Shown here: in pieces, positions 1 through 10,320 of the stretch
Position numbering within the stretch: the stretch's first letter is position 1
How the letters are laid out: each line of letters starts with the position of its first letter
From: Sulfurospirillum sp.
GTDB lineage: Bacteria > Campylobacterota > Campylobacteria > Campylobacterales > Sulfurospirillaceae
DNA length: 10,320 nt
NCBI GenBank assembly: GCA_045047115.1
Contig: JASFYR010000004.1
Span: 1-10,320, forward strand
Direction: 5' to 3'
The notes under the pieces: model-generated
What the model was told of the DNA's origin: nothing
The model's database searches: none
The model's input: only the letters and a program-made list of their open reading frames with translations
Position numbers and translations under genes: made by a program

Positions 1-41
1 CTTTGCGTAGATTTGGCAAGGATCGAGATTAATTTAAATAC

Positions 42-47
42 TATAAT
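42..47 (+). promoter_or_regulatory. Putative sigma70 -10 box (TATAAT) for dapD
   Basis: Perfect TATAAT at 42-47 in AT-rich context, ~73 nt upstream of the dapD ATG. No clear -35 box, which is usual for Campylobacterota promoters. Confidence 0.55.
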
Positions 48-82
48 TTCTAGGCGACAGCCTTAGCTTTAGTCGCGAGGAA

Positions 83-109
83 TTTAATAGGAGCTTTGCT
101 CCTATTAAA
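83..109. repeat. Perfect 12-bp inverted repeat (hairpin) in the dapD leader
   Basis: TTTAATAGGAGC (83-94), loop TTT, GCTCCTATTAAA (98-109). It abuts the purine-rich RBS (AAGGGG, 108-113). Confidence 0.85.
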
Positions 110-120
110 GGGGACATTAA

Positions 121-1320
121 ATGAAAAAAATAAAAACAGTAGAAGAGTTTAAAGAGTTGGTTGCAACTATCGAAACAAAAGGCTACAGAAAGCCATTGGG
201 TTTTGGTATTGCAAGAGTTGACAGAGGACAGATGAACTACAATTCTGTACTTCAGGCGAACTATCCCGTTATAAATTGGAATGAAAATTTTGGTTCAGCT
301 TCTATATTTTTGGAAGCATTAGTGCAAAGTGGTGTTGAGGTTGACTTTGGTAAAAGCGAGTTTGTATGTGAAGTAAATAAAAAGTTTATCAAGTTCGCTT
401 ATAATGCTTTTACCCCATTTTTAGATGAAGCAGTTGGCGAAGCACATAAAAATGTTCAAGTCATAAATGTTTTAAAGTGGATAAAAAAAGAGGTTGATCT
501 CGGAGACTACAGAGTAGTTTTTATCTTTGAGGATGATGCTCCAAAGAGTGTTGAGAGTGTATATCTTAAGCTTTATGCTCTTTCAAGCGGTAAAGCTGAA
601 CTTAGAAGCTTGAACTTAAATGGTGCCTTTGGAGTATTGCCAAATGTTGCATGGAGTGGAAGAGAGCCTATAGAGCTTGATTGGTTGAGAGAAAATGAAG
701 TTGAATTGAAGCTTTTGGGTGAGTATCCGACTATTGACTCAGTAGATAAATTTCCAAGATTTCTCTCTCATATCATTCCGGCTGATAACACAAGGATATT
801 GGATAGTTCAAAAGTTCGCATGGGAGCACAATTAGCAGCAGGAACTACAGTTATGCCAGGAGCCAGCTATATCAACTTCAATGCGGGAACAACCGGAGCA
901 GTTATGGTTGAGGGGCGTATAAGCTCGTCAGCGATAGTTGCAAAAGGTAGCGATGTAGGTGGTGGAGCAAGCATATTGGGAGTGTTGAGTGGAACAAATG
1001 GAAACCCTATAGGCATAGGGGAAAATACACTCCTTGGAGCAAATTCGGTCACAGGTATTCCTTTGGGAGATGGCTGTATCGTAGATGCCGGCATTGCCAT
1101 ACTGGAGGGAACAAAGATAGGTATAGAGCCAAATCAACTTAAAAAGATAAAAGAGGTAAATCCTGGATTTATATCTGAAGATAGTCAAGATTTGCAATTT
1201 TTCAAGGGCTTGGATTTGGCCGGACTCAATGGCATACACTTTAGGCAAAACAGTACAAACGGTATGATCCAGGCATTAAGAAGCCAAAGAGAAGTTATTT
1301 TAAATAAAGAGTTACATTAA
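121..1320 (+). CDS. dapD: 2,3,4,5-tetrahydropyridine-2,6-dicarboxylate N-succinyltransferase (long Campylobacter/Helicobacter-type DapD)
   Basis: 399 aa with the motifs VDKFPRFLSHIIP, VRMGAQLAAGTTVMPGASYINFNAGT, MVEGRISSSA, DVGGGASILGVLSG and IGENTLLGANSVTGIPLGDGCIVDAG (left-handed beta-helix hexapeptide region), plus C-terminal FRQNSTNG...LNKELH. RBS upstream. Confidence 0.95.
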   Translation: MKKIKTVEEFKELVATIETKGYRKPLGFGIARVDRGQMNYNSVLQANYPVINWNENFGSASIFLEALVQSGVEVDFGKSEFVCEVNKKFIKFAYNAFTPFLDEAVGEAHKNVQVINVLKWIKKEVDLGDYRVVFIFEDDAPKSVESVYLKLYALSSGKAELRSLNLNGAFGVLPNVAWSGREPIELDWLRENEVELKLLGEYPTIDSVDKFPRFLSHIIPADNTRILDSSKVRMGAQLAAGTTVMPGASYINFNAGTTGAVMVEGRISSSAIVAKGSDVGGGASILGVLSGTNGNPIGIGENTLLGANSVTGIPLGDGCIVDAGIAILEGTKIGIEPNQLKKIKEVNPGFISEDSQDLQFFKGLDLAGLNGIHFRQNSTNGMIQALRSQREVILNKELH

Positions 1321-1341
1321 TATAGTGCGTAAGGTCGGTTA

Positions 1342-1350
1342 TGCTATAAT
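1342..1350 (+). promoter_or_regulatory. Extended -10 promoter element (TGcTATAAT) for the ABC-F gene
   Basis: TGCTATAAT in the 58-nt intergenic gap, 28 nt upstream of ATG 1379. Confidence 0.65.
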
Positions 1351-1378
1351 CGCGTAAAAAATTTAGGATTATAGATAT

Positions 1379-2971
1379 ATGGTAGAAGTAAATAATTTAA
1401 CGATGAGATATGGCTCAAGAGTTCTGTTTGAAAATATAAATTTAAAACTTGATGTTGGCAAAAGATATGGGCTTATAGGTGCAAATGGTGCCGGAAAAAG
1501 TACTTTTATGAAAATTTTATCAGGTGAACTTGCACCAACCAGCGGAAATATATCCGTTCAAAATGGGCTTAGAGTCGGGATTTTGAGTCAAAATCAGTTT
1601 GCATTCGAGGATTTTACTCTAAAAGATGCAGTGATGTATGGCAATAAAAGACTTTATGATGCTATAAAAGAGAAAGAAGATCTCTATATGAACGGAGACT
1701 TTGAAGATGAAAAAGTTAATGACAGACTAGCCGAGCTTGAGATAATCTGCGCTGAAGAGGATCCCACTTATGAAGTGGATGTAAATATCGAAAAAACTCT
1801 CACATCTTTGGGCTTTACTGTAGAGACACACGAGGATTTGATGAGCTCACTCTCAGGCGGAGATAAGTTTAAGATTTTACTTGCTCAAGTTTTATACTAT
1901 AAGCCTGAAGTTCTCTTTTTGGATGAGCCTACAAATAACCTTGACTTAGAAGCGATAGCATGGCTTGAAGAGCAACTTAAAAGACACGATGGTACCATGG
2001 TGATTATCTCTCATGACAGACACTTTTTAAACTCCATTTGCACAAATATACTTGATCTTGATTTTAAAAAGATAAGAGAATTTACGGGCAACTACAATGA
2101 CTGGTATATGGCAGCAAATCTTATACAAAAACAACAGGAGTTAGAGAGAAATAAAAAGTTAAAAGAGAAAGAGGAACTAGAAGCTTTTGTTAGAAGATTT
2201 TCAGCAAATGCTTCAAAGGCAAAGCAGGCTACGAGTCGCCAGAAACAGCTTGAAAAATTAAATATCGAGGATTTGCAAACTTCAGCCAGACGTGACCCAA
2301 GTATAGTTTTTAAACTCAAAAGAGAGATAGGAAATGAAGTCTTAGAGCTAGAGAATATCTCACAAAGTTTTGATGAAGAGGTTTTAAAAAATATAAATTT
2401 TAGAGTTGAAAAGGGTGACAAGATAGCATTGATAGGACCAAATGGTATAGGAAAAACTACTCTTATTGGTATAATTACCGGTGATTTAAAACCTGATACA
2501 GGTATTATAAAGTGGGGAGCAACTATAGAACCGAGTTACTTTCCACAAAATACAACCGATTTGATAGATGGTGAAGAACCACTGTATGAGTGGCTACAGA
2601 GTTTTGGTGAAAAAAAAGATATAGATGAGGTGAGAAAGTGCCTTGGTCGTATGCTTTTTTCAGGCGAAGAGCAAAAAAAGAGTATCAAGAGTATAAGTGG
2701 TGGTGAAAAACATCGTATGATGCTCTCAAAAATTATGCTGCAAAGAGGAAACTTTTTGATTCTTGATGAGCCGGATAATCACCTTGATTTGGAGGCTATT
2801 ATAGCATTAGGTGAGGGTTTATATAATTTTGACGGAAATGTCATATGTGCAACCCATGACAGAGAGCTTATAGATGCTTTTGCAAACAGAATCATAGAAT
2901 TAAAAGATGATGGAGGTTTTGTAGATTTTAAAGGAAATTATGAAGAGTACAAAGAGCATATCGGTATATAG
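1379..2971 (+). CDS. ybiT: ABC-F family ATP-binding protein (YbiT-like, ribosome-associated ATPase)
   Basis: 530 aa with two ABC cassettes and no TM segments. First cassette: Walker A GANGAGKST, signature LSGGDK, Walker B LFLDEPTNNLD, ISHDRHFLN. Linker: FVRRFSANASKAKQATSRQKQL, typical of the YbiT subfamily. Second cassette: GPNGIGKTT, ISGGEK, LILDEPDNHLD. Confidence 0.9.
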   Translation: MVEVNNLTMRYGSRVLFENINLKLDVGKRYGLIGANGAGKSTFMKILSGELAPTSGNISVQNGLRVGILSQNQFAFEDFTLKDAVMYGNKRLYDAIKEKEDLYMNGDFEDEKVNDRLAELEIICAEEDPTYEVDVNIEKTLTSLGFTVETHEDLMSSLSGGDKFKILLAQVLYYKPEVLFLDEPTNNLDLEAIAWLEEQLKRHDGTMVIISHDRHFLNSICTNILDLDFKKIREFTGNYNDWYMAANLIQKQQELERNKKLKEKEELEAFVRRFSANASKAKQATSRQKQLEKLNIEDLQTSARRDPSIVFKLKREIGNEVLELENISQSFDEEVLKNINFRVEKGDKIALIGPNGIGKTTLIGIITGDLKPDTGIIKWGATIEPSYFPQNTTDLIDGEEPLYEWLQSFGEKKDIDEVRKCLGRMLFSGEEQKKSIKSISGGEKHRMMLSKIMLQRGNFLILDEPDNHLDLEAIIALGEGLYNFDGNVICATHDRELIDAFANRIIELKDDGGFVDFKGNYEEYKEHIGI

Positions 2972-2992
2972 ATAGTCATATTTAAGTTTTTT

Positions 2993-4810
2993 TTGATTTT
3001 AATTCTATTTTTTACTTCTTTGTATTCGATTGATATAAAGAACGACACAAAGGATGGTGGGATTTTATCATCGGCACAGACTCTAGTATGTGCATGTACT
3101 AAGAATATAGCCAGTATAAGAAAATCAAAAGAGTTTAAGAAGCAAGACAGTGAACATATAAATTTAGGTTTTAGCCCGAAATTGACTGTTTGGGTAAAGT
3201 TAAAATTTCACAATAAAGAGAGACAAGAGCTAACAAGGGTGATAAGAGTAGACAATCCTCTTTTGGAAGATGTTGTTTTTTACAGCAGCCAAGATGCATA
3301 TCTACCCCATGCCAAAGGTTTGCTTCACATCAAGGATACTCAGAAGTATCTATACCCCACATATCTACTAAAATTAAAACCAAAAGAGACAATTGAGATA
3401 TATATAAAAATCAAAAACAAGACAACAGGCTTACAGTTTGGTTTGGATTTGCTGAAAAAAAACAATCTTGACAAAAGCGACAGAAGAGAACAGTTTTTTA
3501 TCATATTTTTTATAGGAATTTTGAGTGCATTTTTGATATACTCTTTGGTTTTGTATATCTACACCAAGGATAAAAGCTACTTTTTGTACTCTGCTTATCT
3601 CTTTTTTCTGATATTTCAACAACTTACATTTATAGGCTTTATGCCACTTTATACCCCAAAAGAGTTTACATATATAGATAATTTAATGGTAGTCCCAAAA
3701 GTTGCTTTTATGATTATAGCTGCAGCTCTTTTTGCAAAAAAATTCCTTAGAATAAAAAAATTTACTTCTTTAAATAAGATATATAACTATTTTATACTCT
3801 TTTTGATTTTACAGATGCCATTGTTTGGAACACAATGGTTCTATCTTCCTGAAGTTACAGTGTTGACAGGCTTTTTGTTTGTTATTTTTAATACATATTG
3901 TGGATTTTATGTCTATTTTCACGGTAATAAACAAGCTAGATTTTTTATAGTTGGTTGGATTTTTTTAATTGTTGGATACCTGATTATGATTTTTGATTCT
4001 CTAGGTTTGATCTCGATTATGTACTATTTTCCTCAGCTTATATTGTGTCTTACGGCATTTGAGGCTCTGTTCTTGCTTTTGGCTTTTGTGGACAAAATAA
4101 ATATACTCGATATTCAAAAAAAAGAGTTAAATCAAGAGTTGCTGAAAGAGATGACAAATCGACACAGATTGGTGGAGGCTGAAGTTAAGAAGAAGACAGA
4201 AGAGTTAAATATGGCAGTAAAGGAGAAAACTACACTGCTTAGAGAGTTGCACCATAGAGTTAAAAATAATCTTCAACTGATTTTATCTATAATCCGACTC
4301 CAGAGATATGATATAAAAGATGAGGAGATAGTAGAACAGTTTAAAAAGCTGGAGCTTCGTGTCAAATCAGTTGCAAAGACACACGAGATGTTGTGTGCAA
4401 GTGAAGATATAGCCAGAGTAGATATGGGTGAGTATGTGGTGGAGTTGTGCGAAGAGATTAAAAATGGATTTACAAGAGACAATGTTGAAATTAGATATGA
4501 TATAGAGTTGAATCTTCCCTTGTGTAAAGCTGTATATCTTGGATTGATTATAAATGAGCTGGTTTCTAATTCTATCAAGCATGCATTTGATGAGAGCGGA
4601 GGAGTGATCAGCGTGGTATTAAAAGAGTCGCATCAAAGATATATACTGAGTATAAGCGACAATGGAAAAGGCTACAAAGAGACAGAGGTAAATAAAAAAA
4701 CATTGGGGTTGAGATTGGTTGATTCATTGGTTTTAAACCAATTGGATGGTACAATTGATTTAATAAAAGGTAAAAATACCGAGTATGTTATAAGTTTTTC
4801 AAAAATATAA
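2993..4810 (+). CDS. 7TM-DISM sensor histidine kinase (7TMR-DISMED2 extracytoplasmic domain + 7TM + HisKA_2 + HATPase_c)
   Basis: N-terminal hydrophobic leader; DISMED2-like segment INLGFS..TVWVKLKFHN...IRVDNPLLEDVVFY; seven hydrophobic helices (about aa 168-366); coiled coil; HisKA_2 H-box ELHHRVKNNLQ; N-box INELVSNSIKHAF; G1 DNGKG; G2 LGLRLV. The start codon is uncertain (TTG 2993, or an upstream ATA). Confidence 0.9.
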   Translation: MILILFFTSLYSIDIKNDTKDGGILSSAQTLVCACTKNIASIRKSKEFKKQDSEHINLGFSPKLTVWVKLKFHNKERQELTRVIRVDNPLLEDVVFYSSQDAYLPHAKGLLHIKDTQKYLYPTYLLKLKPKETIEIYIKIKNKTTGLQFGLDLLKKNNLDKSDRREQFFIIFFIGILSAFLIYSLVLYIYTKDKSYFLYSAYLFFLIFQQLTFIGFMPLYTPKEFTYIDNLMVVPKVAFMIIAAALFAKKFLRIKKFTSLNKIYNYFILFLILQMPLFGTQWFYLPEVTVLTGFLFVIFNTYCGFYVYFHGNKQARFFIVGWIFLIVGYLIMIFDSLGLISIMYYFPQLILCLTAFEALFLLLAFVDKINILDIQKKELNQELLKEMTNRHRLVEAEVKKKTEELNMAVKEKTTLLRELHHRVKNNLQLILSIIRLQRYDIKDEEIVEQFKKLELRVKSVAKTHEMLCASEDIARVDMGEYVVELCEEIKNGFTRDNVEIRYDIELNLPLCKAVYLGLIINELVSNSIKHAFDESGGVISVVLKESHQRYILSISDNGKGYKETEVNKKTLGLRLVDSLVLNQLDGTIDLIKGKNTEYVISFSKI

Positions 4811-4820
4811 AGAGAAGAGT

Positions 4821-5495
4821 ATGAAAAAAATATTGATAGTTGAAGATGAGAGTTTGGTGGCGTTGGATATATCTGAGAGTATAGCATCTTTAGGGTATAA
4901 AGCCGTGGGTCCAGCTTCTAGTTTTGATATGGCTGTAGAGCTTGCATCTAACTACCGGCCTGATTTGATTCTTATGGATATTTGCCTCAAGGGAGAAAAA
5001 GATGGCATAGAGGTTGCCAGTGTTATTAAAGCAAAGTATGATACACCCGTCATTTATATAACTGCGCTAAACAGTGAAGATGATATACAAAGAGCAATTT
5101 TGACTAACCCTAGTGCATATCTCATAAAACCTTTCGACATAAAGTCTCTTCAAGTTGCTATCAAAATAGCACTAAACCATAACAACGGAAACTCTGTTTT
5201 GAAGGGAGATATCATATTTGATGATGAATTTAGTTATGATTCTTCAACAAAACAGTTAATACTCAATGGAGAGTTTGTTGGGCTTACAAAAAAAGAAAAT
5301 AGCCTTTTGGAGCTTCTTTTGGATAATGCGAACAGTATAGTTGACCCATATATCATAGAGAATCATATATGGCCTGATAAAGATGCAAATGTAAATACTC
5401 TAAGAGCACTTGTCAGCAGACTAAGAGTAAAACTCAAATATAAATTTATAGAAACCATCCCGTCTATCGGTTACAGATTTACACATATCAAATAG
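4821..5495 (+). CDS. Two-component response regulator, REC + OmpR/PhoB-type winged helix
   Basis: ILIVEDE acidic pocket, phosphoacceptor in DLILMDI, YITA, KPF. C-terminal LTKKE..LLELL...IWPD...TLRALVSRLRVKL...IETIPSIGYRF is Trans_reg_C-like. Starts 10 nt after the kinase stop. Confidence 0.92.
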   Translation: MKKILIVEDESLVALDISESIASLGYKAVGPASSFDMAVELASNYRPDLILMDICLKGEKDGIEVASVIKAKYDTPVIYITALNSEDDIQRAILTNPSAYLIKPFDIKSLQVAIKIALNHNNGNSVLKGDIIFDDEFSYDSSTKQLILNGEFVGLTKKENSLLELLLDNANSIVDPYIIENHIWPDKDANVNTLRALVSRLRVKLKYKFIETIPSIGYRFTHIK

Positions 5496-5535
5496 ATAAT
5501 TAATCAAAAATTAATATAAACTCCTAATAAACTAA

Positions 5536-5571
5536 TTTTGCAATGTTTTTGCAATGCCTTTTTGCTAGTAT
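5536..5571 (+). promoter_or_regulatory. Tandem direct repeat TTTTGCAATG x2 (11-bp period) followed by an extended -10-like TGcTAGTAT; putative regulated promoter
   Basis: TTTTGCAATG at 5536-5545 and 5547-5556. TG-C-TAGTAT at 5563-5571. RBS AGGAG at 5590-5594 before ATG 5601. Confidence 0.55.
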
Positions 5572-5600
5572 TTGCTCATATAAAAATTTAGGAGCAAATC

Positions 5601-6431
5601 ATGGTAAGAAAGATTTTAATCGTCTCGTTACTGTTTTTTGCCACTCTTGGATTTTCTGCATCAGAGTATGATAAGGATATTACAGTTCTAAATCAAAGCA
5701 GAAACGATAAGGTGGTAGCAGTATTTAAAGAGATGATGAAAGCTTATGAAGAAGGGGATATAAGTGGTTTTTTCTCTTATGTGTCAGAAGACAGGTTTAT
5801 ACAGGATTATATGACCTTTTATGATGCTATTGAGAAAGATATGCGGATTTATGACATATTAAATGTAGACACATGGGTAGATAAAATCACGCAAGATGGT
5901 ATAAAAAGGTATCTGTATGTCACTTGGCAAAAGAGATATCAAAGCACTAGCAGTGATAACGAGCTCTTCAAAAAAGGCTACTCAAGATTTCTATTTGATG
6001 AAGTAAATGGAAAATACAAACTAATTGGACTTGCAGGAAATAATTTTTGGGGTGGAAGTCTTGCTGAGTGGAGAGAGGAAGTACCTGAAATAGCGGGACA
6101 AGAACATTATGATACAGCCCCGTCTTTACCGGATTTGATCGTTGAAAATATAACTTGTCCATCAGGAGCTGGTGGAGCTATGCCTGTTGAATTTGATATT
6201 TCCAATATCGGAACAGGAGATACCACTTCCGGTTCTGTGGAGTATGGATATTCAGGAGGAATGTATCCGTCTCAACCTCAATATAACGGAGACATACCTT
6301 CTGGAGGTTCTGTTCATATTTCTACTTCTGGTGATTGCTATGGTGGAGAAACTGCAACAGTTGATCCAAATAATTTAATTAAAGAGTCTAATGAGAATAA
6401 TAATATAGCTACAAATGGATCACCACTATGA
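5601..6431 (+). CDS. Secreted protein: signal peptide + NTF2/SnoaL-like domain + C-terminal CARDB-type Ig-like domain
   Basis: Sec signal MVRKILIVSLLFFATLGFSA. NTF2-like pattern: FKEMMKAYEEGDISGFFSYVSED, a helix, then beta strands ending FLFDEVNGKYKLIG. CARDB signature LPDLIVENI...FDISNIGTG...TVDPNNLIKESNENNN from nt 6126. Strong RBS. Confidence 0.8.
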   Translation: MVRKILIVSLLFFATLGFSASEYDKDITVLNQSRNDKVVAVFKEMMKAYEEGDISGFFSYVSEDRFIQDYMTFYDAIEKDMRIYDILNVDTWVDKITQDGIKRYLYVTWQKRYQSTSSDNELFKKGYSRFLFDEVNGKYKLIGLAGNNFWGGSLAEWREEVPEIAGQEHYDTAPSLPDLIVENITCPSGAGGAMPVEFDISNIGTGDTTSGSVEYGYSGGMYPSQPQYNGDIPSGGSVHISTSGDCYGGETATVDPNNLIKESNENNNIATNGSPL

Positions 6432-8002
6432 TACAAATACTATTCGTTATATTACCTATATTGGCGGTGAGTGTTTTGGGGGCAGATAAAAAAACCGATG
6501 AATGGAAAGTAAACGGACGCTTAAACGCTTACATCCAAAGTATAGATACACAAGGTGAAAGCAACACAACAAAAGAGGGTACAACTCATGTAGAGGAGTT
6601 AAATCTAAACTTTGCAGGACCACTTAAAAACGGACATGCAGGAGTTGAGATGAGAATGAGAACTACAAATGATGATAATGTCCAAAAAGATGGTGCAGAA
6701 CTTCTCTATCTTCACTCATATTTTAGAAACAAGATTTGGACACTCGAAGCCGGAGATGTTGCAGCCTCTTTTAATCCATATATTTTTGGTGGAAGTGTAA
6801 AAGGATTAAAAGCGAAATATAAATCTCCAAATAAAGATAAAAAGTGGGATTACACGATTATATCTGGTTTTAGAAAAGGAAGTTGGAGAGAGGTTTTTAA
6901 AGATGTTAGCGGTGAAGCTCCTACCGCATATGCCGGTGCTTTTGAGGCAAGATACATACATGCCAGAGCCAAAGAGATAGCACTTAGCGTAGCAGCATAC
7001 AAAGATGATCTCTCAACAGGAGATGCAAATTCATCTGTTCTTGGTAAAAAAGGTATAGGTTTTGGGATCGACGGTAAGTGGAGATTTAGTAGATATGTTA
7101 CACTAAAGGGTAGAGTTGCCTTGACAAACGGAACCGATGATATAAAAAACGATAAGCCGAGCAAAACCCACGGTGCAATCTATATAAAATTACTTACAAG
7201 ACCAGTTTTGAGATCAGTAAAGAGTAATTTCACATATCAAAGAGTTGCGTCTGATTTTCTATCATTTGGCGGAAACGGGACAAAAGATAAAGAGCAGATT
7301 GAAAACTCAACATCATGGAGAATTAACAAAAAATTTCGTGCAAGCCTTAGTCTAAAAGCAAACAGAGACAATCTGGATGGTGCTCTGGGAGATACCAGAC
7401 ATATCTACTATGAGATGCTTCGATTGAGCTATTATCCCAATTTTTTAAAGAGAGGAGATATAAATTTCAAACTCTCAAACAAAGATACCAAAGGAAGAGG
7501 TGCTAACAACAACAGACAGATAGCAGGAGTTGATTTTAACCTTCGTAAAAAGTCTGGCTGGAGATATGGCGCTGGATTTGAGTATAATGACTATGATGAT
7601 GACAACTCAACAGCCTCGTCTCAAACTACAACCATCTATAAAGCATTGGTGGGATACAGACATAAGATCAGCAAAACGCAATCTTACCGTGTAACTATCA
7701 GGACAAATTATCAAGATATCCACGGAGATCAAGATAAGATAGGTTTTAAGATAGATGCGGGATATGTTCACAACAAGCATCTGTCTATGGATCTGTCATA
7801 TAACATAAATGATACGGATTATGATAACTCAAATGATACTCAAAACAGTACCTATCAGTTCAGAACTACATATAAAATCGACACAAAAGGCGCCAAAACA
7901 GTTCGACTTCTCTTGGAGAAAAGAGATGTTGATGTTGAGAATGATGGCGCAAACAGCTACAACGAATACAGAGGAAAACTCTCATTTGTTGTGAATTTTT
8001 AA
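6428..8002 (+). CDS. Putative outer-membrane beta-barrel protein of unknown family
   Basis: 524 aa with a hydrophobic signal peptide. Many amphipathic strands with aromatic ends (WKVNGRLNAY, FGIDGKWRF, WRYGAGFEY, FKIDAGYVH, YQFRTTYKI). C-terminal YRGKLSFVVNF ends in Phe, resembling a BAM beta-signal. ATGA overlap with the upstream gene. Confidence 0.8.
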   Translation: MIQILFVILPILAVSVLGADKKTDEWKVNGRLNAYIQSIDTQGESNTTKEGTTHVEELNLNFAGPLKNGHAGVEMRMRTTNDDNVQKDGAELLYLHSYFRNKIWTLEAGDVAASFNPYIFGGSVKGLKAKYKSPNKDKKWDYTIISGFRKGSWREVFKDVSGEAPTAYAGAFEARYIHARAKEIALSVAAYKDDLSTGDANSSVLGKKGIGFGIDGKWRFSRYVTLKGRVALTNGTDDIKNDKPSKTHGAIYIKLLTRPVLRSVKSNFTYQRVASDFLSFGGNGTKDKEQIENSTSWRINKKFRASLSLKANRDNLDGALGDTRHIYYEMLRLSYYPNFLKRGDINFKLSNKDTKGRGANNNRQIAGVDFNLRKKSGWRYGAGFEYNDYDDDNSTASSQTTTIYKALVGYRHKISKTQSYRVTIRTNYQDIHGDQDKIGFKIDAGYVHNKHLSMDLSYNINDTDYDNSNDTQNSTYQFRTTYKIDTKGAKTVRLLLEKRDVDVENDGANSYNEYRGKLSFVVNF

Positions 8003-8008
8003 TCTCTG

Positions 8009-8045
8009 CATGTAGAGGGTAAAGCTACTCTCTACATGTCTTTTT
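8009..8045 (+). terminator. Intrinsic terminator-like hairpin between the barrel gene and the large ORF
   Basis: 13-bp stem CATGTAGAGGGTA (8009-8021), loop AAGC, TACTCTCTACATG (8026-8038), with one G-U pair, followed by TCTTTTT. Confidence 0.6.
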
Positions 8046-8064
8046 GGACAAAAAGGAGCTTATC

Positions 8065-10320
8065 TTGAGAATTTTATTTTTATTTATCTTTAGCATCAGT
8101 TGTATATATGCAAATATAGGTGTGGTAGTTGACAGTGTTGGTAGCTCGACTCTCCTTAGAAGCGGGGAGCTTCTTAAGGTAATCCAAAAAACAAAAATCA
8201 AAGTACACGATACGATTTTTACCAAAAAAGGTGCCAGGGTAAAGATATTTTTCAAAGATGATACAGTAGTCTCTCTTGGCGAAAGGACATCTTTTGAGGT
8301 AGACAGCTATTTTTATAAAGATAATGATAAAAAATCAAATGTAAAATTCAGAGTTCTAAAAGGTTTTTTTAAAGCCGTAACCGGAAAGATAAGCAAGATA
8401 GCCCCACAAAGATTTAAACTGCAAACAAAAAATGCAACGATAGGTATAAGAGGGACGGTTTTCGCTGCCCAAGTGGGTGACAAGGTGGATGTTACTATCT
8501 GTACAGATGGTACTATAGTGATCACAACTGAGACAGGAAGTTATGAGCTAAGCAAAGGGGGAGTGGCTCGAGTCTCAAAATCAGCTCCACCTAAAATTTC
8601 AAAATATTCACAAAAATTAAAAAAAGAGATTGTAAAAAAATCTGGTTGGCAAGGAAGCATGACTCAAAATGAGTTAAAAAAATATATCGAAAAAATTTTT
8701 AAAGAACCTGTAAAGAGCCAACTGTTAGGCGCAATAGATAATATATTTAAAAAAGACAGTAGTGAAAAAAGAGGAACAGAAAGCGCAAAAAATGATTCCA
8801 AAAATAAAACGGCAGATGCTGAGAGTATAGGATTTATAGATGACATAACTATAAATGGCAGAGAGTTTGATGAACTCCCACGCCATATCGAGTTTTATAC
8901 AGAAGATTTAAAAGGCGGAAAAGTCACTATAAGCGGATTGTTGGAGAGTGACAAGAAGAGTGTCCCTGTAGATGACCTTTCGGTAGCTGTCAGTCTTGAT
9001 GGAGGTGATACATGGAAGATTGCAAACGGACATGCAGATTGGGAGTATAAATTTTATCCAAAGATAGGCAAGACATATGAACTATCACTAAAGGTAGTAA
9101 AAAAATCCACTTCAGATACACAAGATAACTCCAATGATATGGATATACCTCATATTTTAAATATAAATGGTTTTATACTTACTTTGGGAGATGATGTTAG
9201 CATAGAAAATGGAAGACTAAGAGGTAGCGGTACCCTTTTTATCCCAATTTTGCAAACTATAAGCTCGACTGCAAGCATAGATGTAAATTTTAACAATCTA
9301 CAATTTTCAAATGGTGTGGTTACAGTAGGTGATATAGAGTATAACGAAGCAATAAATCTTCAGACAGATGTGGCTGATATAAGTATCAGTAAGTTGACAG
9401 TGTCGCCTGTTATAGCGAACAATAAGATAGAAGGAAAGGTAACATTCAAGGGTGATTTTTCTTTTCTTCCTGCGATAAATTTAGCAGATACATCCGCCCT
9501 GCTTCCATCATCTTTCTCCCTTGTCGTTCCCGTGCAGGTACAGGAGTTTTCCATATTGCCATCACACAGTGTAAAGTTTATATTGAGTTCGGGAAACATC
9601 AAGATAAATTATGCCTTGGGAGACAGTACTCCGACTCTGGATATATCTTCACTAAATGCGAAATTGGACTTTGGAGATATTCTTCAAACTGCAGTAGGCA
9701 GTGCATCCTCAGTTGTTGCAAATTTGCAGAGTATCGCAAGTAGTGCAGGTTCTTACGCGCTGAATTTGGAGAGAGGTGTAAAAGCTTATCTTTATGGCAA
9801 AAGTATATTATTGGAGAATCTTGGTCTGAGTTTTAATATAAAAGATAAGTCTGTACATGTAGAGAGTGGTATAGATTTTAGTGGGTATGATAACCCTGTG
9901 GCAGAACGCATAACAGATGCGACTATGAGTGCAGATATAAGCCCTGGCGGATTTAGTGGTGAGATAAGTGCATCGGCATCACTTGAGCCTATAGTTATAC
10001 TTGAGCGAGGAGGAGTGGGTAAAGATGTTAGGATTACTTTTGGCGAGAATACATCTGTAAGCCTCAGTCTTGGTGATTCGGATGTGGATATAGACTTTGA
10101 AGGCTTTGATATGAGCGTTGATTTTGGTGATGTCCTAAAGAGTGGTACTGAAAATGTCGGCTCTATTGTGGCAAATTTAAGCAAGATTGACGGTGCATAT
10201 TTTTTAAATTTACCCCAAGGCACAAAAGCATATCTCTTAGGACAAAATATTCTCTTGGAAGGCTTGGATTTAAGCTTCGATATGGATAAAAAATCCGTAC
10301 ATATAAGCAGTAGTGTGGAT
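8065..10320 (+). CDS. Large secreted FecR-domain protein with Ig-like domain and ~150-aa beta-rich repeats (3'-truncated by window end; absent from ORF track)
   Basis: Manual translation: RBS AAGGAG (8053-8058), TTG 8065, then 752 codons with no stop. Signal peptide MRILFLFIFSISCIYA. FecR-like region (DTIFTKKGARVKIFFKDDTVVSLGERT...VLKGFFKAVTGKI...FKLQTKNATIGIRGTVF). Ig-like region (VTISG...VAVSLDGGDTWKIANGHADWEYKF). Internal repeat in the 3' part. Confidence 0.88.
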   Translation, partial: MRILFLFIFSISCIYANIGVVVDSVGSSTLLRSGELLKVIQKTKIKVHDTIFTKKGARVKIFFKDDTVVSLGERTSFEVDSYFYKDNDKKSNVKFRVLKGFFKAVTGKISKIAPQRFKLQTKNATIGIRGTVFAAQVGDKVDVTICTDGTIVITTETGSYELSKGGVARVSKSAPPKISKYSQKLKKEIVKKSGWQGSMTQNELKKYIEKIFKEPVKSQLLGAIDNIFKKDSSEKRGTESAKNDSKNKTADAESIGFIDDITINGREFDELPRHIEFYTEDLKGGKVTISGLLESDKKSVPVDDLSVAVSLDGGDTWKIANGHADWEYKFYPKIGKTYELSLKVVKKSTSDTQDNSNDMDIPHILNINGFILTLGDDVSIENGRLRGSGTLFIPILQTISSTASIDVNFNNLQFSNGVVTVGDIEYNEAINLQTDVADISISKLTVSPVIANNKIEGKVTFKGDFSFLPAINLADTSALLPSSFSLVVPVQVQEFSILPSHSVKFILSSGNIKINYALGDSTPTLDISSLNAKLDFGDILQTAVGSASSVVANLQSIASSAGSYALNLERGVKAYLYGKSILLENLGLSFNIKDKSVHVESGIDFSGYDNPVAERITDATMSADISPGGFSGEISASASLEPIVILERGGVGKDVRITFGENTSVSLSLGDSDVDIDFEGFDMSVDFGDVLKSGTENVGSIVANLSKIDGAYFLNLPQGTKAYLLGQNILLEGLDLSFDMDKKSVHISSSVD
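9616..10320 (+). repeat. Diverged intragenic repeat, period ~148-151 aa (444-453 nt)
   Basis: LGDS..(13 aa)..DFGD begins at 9616 and at 10069. KAYLYGKSILLENLGLSFNIKDKSVHVESGID (9781-9876) vs KAYLLGQNILLEGLDLSFDMDKKSVHISSSVD (10225-10320) are 19/32 identical. Confidence 0.85.

Follow-up and report, generated by a model that had tools for sequence, protein, structure and literature searches.

We analyzed a 10,320-nucleotide stretch of DNA from Sulfurospirillum sp. (assembly GCA_045047115.1, here genome G000), which is the whole of contig JASFYR010000004.1 (G000:C4) and is referred to as the window, with gene order read on the forward strand. The window encodes, in this order, dapD, an ABC-F gene, a 7TMR-DISM/HisKA_2 sensor kinase, an OmpR-type regulator, and three forward-strand open reading frames (ORFs) for an NTF2-CARDB protein, an outer membrane beta-barrel and the first part of a giant protein (Table 1). 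The three genes are real and constitute a conserved envelope module. Their products very probably act as one physical module, and, judging from the sequences, the genes are likely to encode a system, so far undescribed, by which giant proteins are held on the cell surface and which may report the state of these proteins to a sensor inside the cell. An earlier sequence-only reading had described three co-directional genes, two of them joined by an ATGA overlap, behind a two-component pair. Both features were present: the overlap, at 6428-6431, joins the NTF2-CARDB and barrel genes, and the kinase and regulator were assigned by Pfam. The signal peptides that it had placed on all three proteins correspond to signal-peptide-like starts, as judged by eye. 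In GC content, the three-ORF stretch resembles the remainder of the window.

Table 1. Features of the window (positions 1 to 10,320)
Feature	Position	Strand	Evidence or remark
7TMR-DISM/HisKA_2 sensor kinase, likely operon regulator	2993..4810	+	Pfam; kinase and/or its regulator directly upstream in 8 distinct loci
OmpR-type response regulator	4821..5495	+	Response_reg + Trans_reg_C
TTTTGCAATG direct repeat, 11-bp period, likely regulator box	5536..5556	+	sequence; kept where two-component genes adjoin
Exported protein, 276 amino acids: NTF2-like domain (~5661-6047) and CARDB domain (6129-6413)	5601..6431	+	
Predicted 26-strand plug-less outer membrane beta-barrel, 524 amino acids, unnamed family, MtrB-like fold	6428..8002	+	
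Terminator-like hairpin between barrel and giant genes	8008..8039	+	similar hairpins in part of the related loci
Giant exported protein, N-terminal 752 amino acids; open at 3' end	8065..10320	+	continues on G000:C38, minus strand, 2,023 amino acids
FecR domain of the giant, the genome's only copy, optional in relatives	8209..8499	+	Pfam
IgX, conserved acidic Ig/FN3-like domain, candidate barrel-docking domain	8800..9111	+	
First copies of the ~146-amino-acid all-beta repeat of the giant's body	9150..10320	+	

The barrel and its known counterparts

The barrel protein was modeled with AlphaFold2 from 71 sequences (predicted local distance difference test [pLDDT], 89.5). The model has 26 strands across residues 27 to 523 and no plug, POTRA, N-terminal or helical domain, and the 524-residue protein ends in phenylalanine. 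The sequence-only reading had likewise described a terminal-Phe barrel that lacked a POTRA region, a TonB plug and a TPR N terminus, and the model confirms that these three are lacking. The closest fold was that of MtrB (6r2q_B), with a VIA Z score of 19.8, a root mean square deviation of 5.5 and 12% identity over 445 aligned residues, the next row scoring 16.1. MtrB was also the top match in Foldseek (E 3.5e-10, TMq 0.55), followed by ushers as the second-best group, SusC and SlpA; porins were among the matches. PDB sequence searches with the barrel returned no relative, and a deep profile gave weak chitoporin matches (E 0.002).

The profile search defined a family of 351 clusters at 50% identity, 206 of them at E <= 1e-10. 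Pfam and NCBIfam scans of 82 family members yielded SlpA_C (6 members), OMP_b-brl (5), Porin_4 (5) and TIGR03016 (1), none of which is family-defining. Querying the Atlas with the barrel returned unnamed clusters from Elusimicrobiota, Thermodesulfobacteriota and Omnitrophota (0.98), as well as one cluster auto-named TIGR03016, and DUF6029 at 0.94. Assignment of the barrel to TIGR03016 was rejected, since a single member of the 82 matches (E 2e-4). By its sequence, the barrel belongs to an unnamed family, and the sequence, profile and Pfam searches matched no characterized one; a match to a characterized family of unrelated function, which would have refuted the sequence-only reading, did not occur.

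The named close homologues are from Campylobacterota, and the named members in three of ten clusters looked up were from Planctomycetota, Calescamantes and Omnitrophota. The distribution is patchy, with matches in 3/401 genomes of the phylum sample and 10/401 of the order sample. In the phylum of G601 (Desulfobacterota), matches were found in 31/401 genomes, weak ones counted. The genome of the window carries a distant barrel paralogue of 652 amino acids with a 357-amino-acid exported protein (G000:C9:7721-18730, L013); on the opposite strand of that locus lie a 1,977-amino-acid giant with a Cys-rich tail and a 662-amino-acid fn3 protein. One further barrel (L060) is split into two ORFs, by decay or assembly error.

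MtrB has 26 strands, and its lumen is filled by MtrA, which is encoded just upstream. The module shares with MtrAB the wide plug-less barrel fold, MtrB being the top match in both searches, but differs in its 11-12% identity, its Ig/NTF2-like partners, its giant cargos and the lack of haem proteins. A porin-cytochrome electron conduit of the MtrAB type could appeal to this fold match and to a precomputed match to PF11854 (MtrB_PioB) in one of 88 close homologues; PF11854, however, matches 0/82 family members, and no CxxCH motif occurs in partners above 250 amino acids in the loci scanned, a set that leaves out four flank loci. With the haem motifs missing, this explanation is largely refuted and appears extremely improbable.

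Ushers are wide barrels that pass folded Ig-like domains. FimD and PapC belong to the second-best Foldseek group, but ushers have a 24-strand barrel with a plug and periplasmic domains and are encoded with chaperone and pilin genes, whereas the 26-strand barrel of the module has neither a plug nor periplasmic N- and C-terminal domains; no usher, PapD, fimbrial or pilin Pfam match was found in the barrel or its partners. Type Vb secretion resembles the module in that the gene after the barrel gene encodes a giant, exported by Sec, whose N-proximal domain is conserved. It differs in its 16-strand Omp85 barrel, against 26 strands without POTRA here, and in the extra NTF2 and FN3 partners of the module. 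The barrel gave no POTRA/ShlB Pfam match, and Pfam and NCBIfam scans of the window proteins and full-length giants gave no two-partner secretion (TPS) domain family. As to a beta-helical cargo, the modeled part of the giant (residues 252-759) had Ig-like domains and small beta barrels among its listed matches, all with Z < 7. Slam/type XI systems combine a TPR N terminus with a 14-strand barrel (DUF560) and TonB-dependent transporters a 22-strand barrel with an N-terminal plug, in contrast to the 26-strand, plug-less barrel without a helical domain found here, and no TPR or DUF560 match occurred in the 82 family members. The module is therefore not of the type Vb, Slam, usher, TonB-dependent or Mtr type, defining features of each being missing; the poor fit to type V secretion, type XI secretion and TonB uptake noted from the sequence holds. 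By analogy, its gene logic recalls two-partner secretion, its barrel architecture MtrAB, and its possible anchoring the pairs of PorP with type B C-terminal domains (CTDs). No description of the module was found in the literature searched, a scope that excluded most subscription papers.

Partner proteins in close and distant loci

In the protein encoded upstream of the barrel, the CARDB domain (PF07705) spans residues 177-271 of 276 (E 4e-8), as had been read from the sequence. The NTF2-like domain, also named there, gave no direct Pfam match, and searching Pfam with a narrow NTF2 alignment yielded no information. A profile built from 45 rows of the domain matches a designed NTF2 protein (E 1e-3), and individual members show weak Pfam matches to SnoaL_2 (4/45), SnoaL_3 (4/45) and NTF2_YvbJ (3/45). 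These matches are weak but concordant and lend the NTF2-like fold weak support.

For the giant, 8044 and 8065 are candidate starts; the TTG at 8065, behind AAGGAG, is likelier, and the database copy has 752 amino acids. A further 2,023 amino acids of the protein are encoded on the minus strand of contig C38, at its end, the join consisting of a 4-nucleotide overlap in assembly data alone. The nearest relative shares 62% identity over the C38 part and has one extra repeat of ~150 amino acids at the break, which places the length of the giant at ~2,780-2,930 amino acids. On C38, the giant is followed by a 646-amino-acid FN3-type protein, a homologue of a Pfam fn3 protein, and then by a CHASE2/HisKA_2 kinase. 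The FecR label given earlier was confirmed (PF04773, E 5e-13), while the description of the giant as an Ig-repeat protein was not: it has a single Ig-like domain (8800-9111), and its ~146-amino-acid repeats are small beta domains other than Ig. The Ig-like domain, termed IgX, is a 100-amino-acid Ig/FN3-like sandwich with a mean column identity of 54%, and its nearest structure is the sulfite-oxidase dimerization domain (Z 6.0, 30% identity over 80 residues). A lipoprotein reading of the giant's cysteine was rejected, there being no lipobox and no conservation of the residue.

The model of residues 252-759 is all-beta (pLDDT 90.4). This IgX-plus-repeat model matched no PDB entry at E <= 0.001 in Foldseek and nothing meaningful among viral structures (TMq <= 0.15); in VIA, the repeats gave weak matches to avidin/calycin-like small barrels, all with Z < 7. 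A body of this kind, long, all-beta and with alternating hydrophobic residues, is what a bridge-like lipid-transfer protein of the TamB/AsmA type feeding the barrel would have. However, the body is missing in several loci, its best fold matches are small closed beta domains, and the N terminus resembles, by eye, a cleavable signal peptide rather than an anchor. With residues 252-759 modeled, the giant gave no Pfam AsmA/TamB match, and the 50 VIA matches listed for this region include no TamB, AsmA or beta-helix chain. We consider a lipid bridge highly improbable. The weak resemblance of the repeats to avidin and calycins (Z 6-7) also bears on nutrient uptake, in which a wide porin would work with surface binding proteins according to a SusCD-like logic; SusC and porins among the fold matches and conserved charged residues on the barrel strands point the same way. 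Yet a Z score under 8 denotes a merely common arrangement, the barrel lacks a plug, and no TonB, transporter or catabolic gene recurs beside it in the loci listed, so that this function is quite unlikely.

The C-terminal part of the giant weakly matches DUF6603 (E 1.4e-6; in the Atlas, 0.91 at low recognition); no paper holding the term DUF6603 was found in the literature searched. With the TANFOR giants of Bacteroidota and DUF6603 proteins, the module has in common large Sec-exported proteins, FN3-rich neighborhoods and this weak match, but no TANFOR domain, toxin or immunity gene was found here, and a Gly-rich tail and then an FN3 gene follow. For the TANFOR giants, export via a type IX secretion system (T9SS) was proposed, and no dedicated barrel is described in the available sections of the article (PMC7073777). 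A constant N-terminal domain, variable C termini and FN3 neighbors would also suit polymorphic toxin delivery of that kind (compare the same sections of PMC7073777). Against it, no toxin family was found in any giant scanned, complete giants are followed by an FN3 gene and not by a small immunity gene, and TIGR02542 had no match in the giants or the genome, with the control silent too. We regard toxin delivery as very unlikely.

The close set comprised 40 loci; with five more, the 45 loci form 34 clusters at 90% barrel identity and are kin rather than independent cases. An NTF2/CARDB gene lies directly upstream of the barrel in 34 of the 40 close loci, the other 6 being too short to test. An IgX protein is encoded at most two genes downstream of the barrel in 35/40; of the five loci without an IgX call, three are too short and two have a small gene first and less than 800 bp. 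FecR is present in 16 of these 35 downstream proteins and missing from 19. The region after IgX varies from none (347 amino acids in total, L029) through low-complexity chains (L027, L034, L037) to giants of up to 3,200 amino acids. An FN3 gene follows the 14 complete giants with room to see; the split giant of L046 has an FN3 fragment third, and L044 and L051 end too soon. After short cargos with room, FN3 was seen in 0/4 and a CHASE2 gene in 4/4. The sequence-only reading had linked the barrel to FecR-repeat and CARDB proteins; homologues of the barrel do adjoin the partners, so that this second refuting condition of that reading is absent too, but the constant parts are IgX and the NTF2-like domain, FecR being present in under half of the downstream proteins and CARDB interchangeable. 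On sequence evidence, the fixed partners of the barrel are thus the small acidic IgX and NTF2-like domains and not FecR or CARDB. Net charge was acidic for NTF2 and IgX in 26/26 loci and basic for the barrel in 22/26, each computed for the whole protein. Across 26 loci, the barrel, NTF2 and IgX show correlated pairwise identities (rho 0.75-0.86), which we did not count as co-evolution because shared ancestry explains it.

Several of these loci show further peculiarities. Between the barrel and short FecR-IgX cargos, L022, L027, L030, L031, L034, L036 and L037 encode a small exported protein of 140-163 amino acids, the one copy scanned matching no Pfam family. The cargos of L027, L034, L036 and L037 carry 15-amino-acid tandem repeats (VITTxPxVxKFK-like) after IgX and then long acidic Gly-rich low-complexity chains. 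The giants of G000:C38, L023, L033, L039, L040, L048, L056 and L057 finish with a Gly-rich linker and then a short alternating strand that often ends in F, W or Y, resembling a beta-signal; other giants lack such an ending. A pairing of this C terminus with the barrel or with the FN3 protein is conceivable. In L046 the giant is split into two ORFs, and in L001/L053 it has an in-frame deletion of most of FecR, both signs of decay or assembly error.

More distant loci use other layouts. In G322, G594, G414:C53 and G598, the barrel is followed by an IgX-NTF2-X fusion of 430-450 amino acids and then by proteins of 1,000-1,200 amino acids with an NTF2-like tail, and 32 further IgX proteins of 427-449 amino acids were found. 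From the second phylum we sampled 16 of the 31 genomes with matches, picked by best scores and spread, one of the 16 being a weak match. This weak match (L076) is a BBP2 porin without partners and was dropped as a false barrel match, as was L003. An adjacent IgX and/or NTF2-like protein was found at 14 of the 15 true barrel loci; L074 has no such partner at E 1e-3. The layouts include IgX-NTF2 fusions with several tailed cargos (L061-L065), IgX-NTF2 alone (L066, L075), NTF2 with NTF2-CARDB (L067, L068), and FecR-IgX-X proteins (L069-L073). In L069-L074, the barrel and FecR-IgX genes have Skp/OmpH-like genes, of which Pfam confirmed one, immediately downstream, and a PASTA-subtilase gene is located on the opposite strand upstream of the 650-amino-acid barrel and NTF2 genes in L067 and L068.

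The NTF2-like C-terminal tail is common to 15 proteins (880-1,316 amino acids, 9 loci) whose bodies are only partly alike. Among 13 tailed proteins scanned with Pfam, one has seven PASTA repeats and the rest show no convincing family. A small domain common to diverse large proteins encoded beside a dedicated barrel is the pattern that would be expected of a targeting signal. It is also reminiscent of T9SS type B CTD proteins, large surface proteins that are held by a cognate barrel, PorP/SprF, through a small common domain (available sections of PMC9143113); in the module, however, both barrel and signal domains are different, the organism is not of the Bacteroidota, and NCBIfam and Pfam scans of the giants gave no Por secretion tail/CTD match. 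On this precedent (same sections of PMC9143113), the barrel might be an anchor only, with partners that cross the outer membrane elsewhere and bind it from outside, as type B CTD proteins do with PorP/SprF. The common tail on several cargos per barrel and a locus without an energizing part would fit, but a 26-strand lumen without a plug of its own has to be filled, a periplasmic end of the giant is implied by FecR together with its CHASE2 partner, and the genome has no SprA match (TIGR04189), although control genomes gave none either. We judge an anchor-only role unlikely.

FecR, CHASE2 and a putative display socket

FecR and CHASE2 each occur once in G000, both in this locus. Copy numbers of FecR and CHASE2 agree in other genomes too (G075, 0/0; G414, 1/1 on different contigs; G586, 3/3); in G572, FecR is internally deleted and CHASE2 is matched in two pieces, both looking degraded. 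G075 is a complete genome, and its giant has no FecR. CHASE2 is part of the locus in 6 of the 7 distinct loci that bear FecR and leave room to see it, and in 0/4 FecR-less loci with more than 2.7 kb after the giant. FecR is thus optional and tracks CHASE2 sensors, and the two are probably coupled functionally. An association of their genes has been published for Campylobacterota adenylate cyclases (PMC9239204) and, as a LysM-FecR/CHASE2 operon, for Burkholderia kinases (PMC5192318), and a FecR protein is among the Sinorhizobium Clr targets (PMC5498481), each cited for its available sections. As in these clusters, a FecR-domain envelope protein is here tied genetically to a CHASE2 sensor, but FecR forms an N-terminal, optional part of a barrel's cargo; the available sections of PMC9239204 and PMC5192318 do not mention such a barrel, IgX, NTF2 or giant for their clusters, and those of PMC5192318 call the signal of the pairs unknown.

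The published association (PMC9239204 and PMC5192318, in the sections available) would also suit a receptor or trans-envelope signaling complex in which the barrel admits or senses a ligand and periplasmic partners relay it to CHASE2 or seven-transmembrane (7TM) sensors. CHASE2 genes come after proteins that consist of FecR and IgX only, and a stand-alone NTF2 gene precedes a 7TM kinase in some loci. However, 19/35 downstream proteins lack FecR, G075 has the module with neither FecR nor CHASE2, and a chain of beads of 3,000 amino acids would be hard to fit in the periplasm. The probability of a receptor complex is, in our judgment, low.

We lean, without strong confidence, towards an MtrB-like socket that passes or anchors proteins with docking domains through the barrel and displays them on the surface. 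From the genes, domains, predicted folds, co-occurrence and co-variation described above, we infer the steps of binding, pore passage, topology, adhesion and signaling as follows. An open 26-strand socket in the outer membrane would take up Sec-exported partners through IgX or the NTF2-like domain, both small and acidic, and keep them in a position in which the remainder of every partner stands outside the cell. The giant would span the membrane, with FecR in the periplasm, IgX docked within or against the pore, and, outside the cell, a stalk of ~2,400 residues made up of beta-domain beads with a DUF6603-like region, which would most likely serve as adhesin or surface probe. The FN3 protein may be a folding or assembly partner of this stalk. 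The NTF2-CARDB protein, translationally coupled to the barrel, could be a plug or adaptor that resides there, much like MtrA in MtrB, and FecR would link the CHASE2 kinase, whose gene comes after that for FN3, to the state of the stalk. The FN3 gene and the FecR-CHASE2 link go beyond the parts recognized in the sequence-only reading, as does the hairpin at 8008-8039. The proposal of that reading, a barrel that may be a dedicated translocon or anchor for the CARDB protein and/or the giant, is partly supported.

A number of observations weigh against this socket. The likeness to MtrB may mirror strand number only (11-12% identity, TMq 0.55), and 6/82 family members match the S-layer porin model SlpA_C, the best at 3e-10. 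Neither docking domain is universal, with IgX only in L069-L073 and NTF2 only in L067-L068, and the paralogue locus on C9 (L013) shows neither. The charge figures cover the whole barrel and not its lumen. The locus contains no ATPase, motor, POTRA or usher-type chaperone-binding domain, and no energy source for export is evident in it. DUF6603-like clusters are commonest in Actinomycetota (one Atlas row), so a DUF6603-like region does not need an outer membrane barrel. In G414 the FecR giant and the CHASE2 gene are not neighbors, and in the window's own genome the CHASE2 kinase is frameshifted near its start at a short T-run (C38, ~46,150-46,400 minus strand, L004; assembly data), which may be an assembly error, a pseudogene or phase variation.

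A broader form of the socket reading, which we put forward tentatively and doubt somewhat, is a two-step secretion and display class spread over Campylobacterota, Desulfobacterota and several candidate phyla. In such a class, one 26-strand barrel would recognize folded cargo through one or the other of two interchangeable signals (an N-proximal IgX and a C-terminal NTF2-like tail), thread giant chains of beads with no motor of its own, and retain a periplasmic FecR end through which a CHASE2 sensor reports surface contact. Were export confirmed, the module would be categorically new, a prospect we hold with less than even confidence. New routes across the outer membrane are rare, and the module brings two candidate signal domains, IgX and the NTF2-like tail. 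If the socket reading is true, an MtrB-type sheath architecture is used for protein display and not for electron transfer, and the unnamed 351-cluster barrel family and the DUF6603-like giants gain a role. The module would also offer a concrete input for FecR-CHASE2 pairs. Even as an anchor or receptor only, it would be an undescribed envelope complex.

Operon control and minor features

The sequence-only reading had placed a dedicated-looking promoter before the operon. A sigma-70 scan returned 15 promoter-like sites against 11.3 +/- 3.6 by chance, hence no excess, but a conserved direct repeat with an 11-bp period is located at 5536-5556 (TTTTGCAATG). A repeat of this type precedes the operon, as judged by eye, in 8/8 distinct loci whose kinase or regulator adjoins; six copies are perfect, one has a mismatch and one is a GGAAC variant. 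Where no such pair adjoins and the upstream sequence extends for at least 2 kb (13 loci), 2 loci have the repeat, 1 has it in part and 10 lack it. Because OmpR-type regulators bind repeats of this kind, the repeat is likely the box of the upstream response regulator, through which the kinase and regulator would turn on the operon. The genome has two occurrences of the pattern, and the only other TGCAAY-N5-TGCAAY site, G000:C41:35849, is a possible second target of the regulator.

In L016, L018, L019, L020/L057 and L026, the same GCAAT direct repeat is found just after the hairpin between the barrel and giant genes, which suggests a second regulated promoter for the giant in those loci; it is not present at that place in the window. 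A stand-alone NTF2-like gene of 146 amino acids precedes a 7TM kinase in L018/L054 and L026/L028, and these loci have no response regulator. Near the start of the window, a short repeated element (35-135) resembling repetitive extragenic palindromic sequences or miniature inverted-repeat transposable elements has copies on more than 20 contigs, many of them at contig ends, and probably breaks the assembly.

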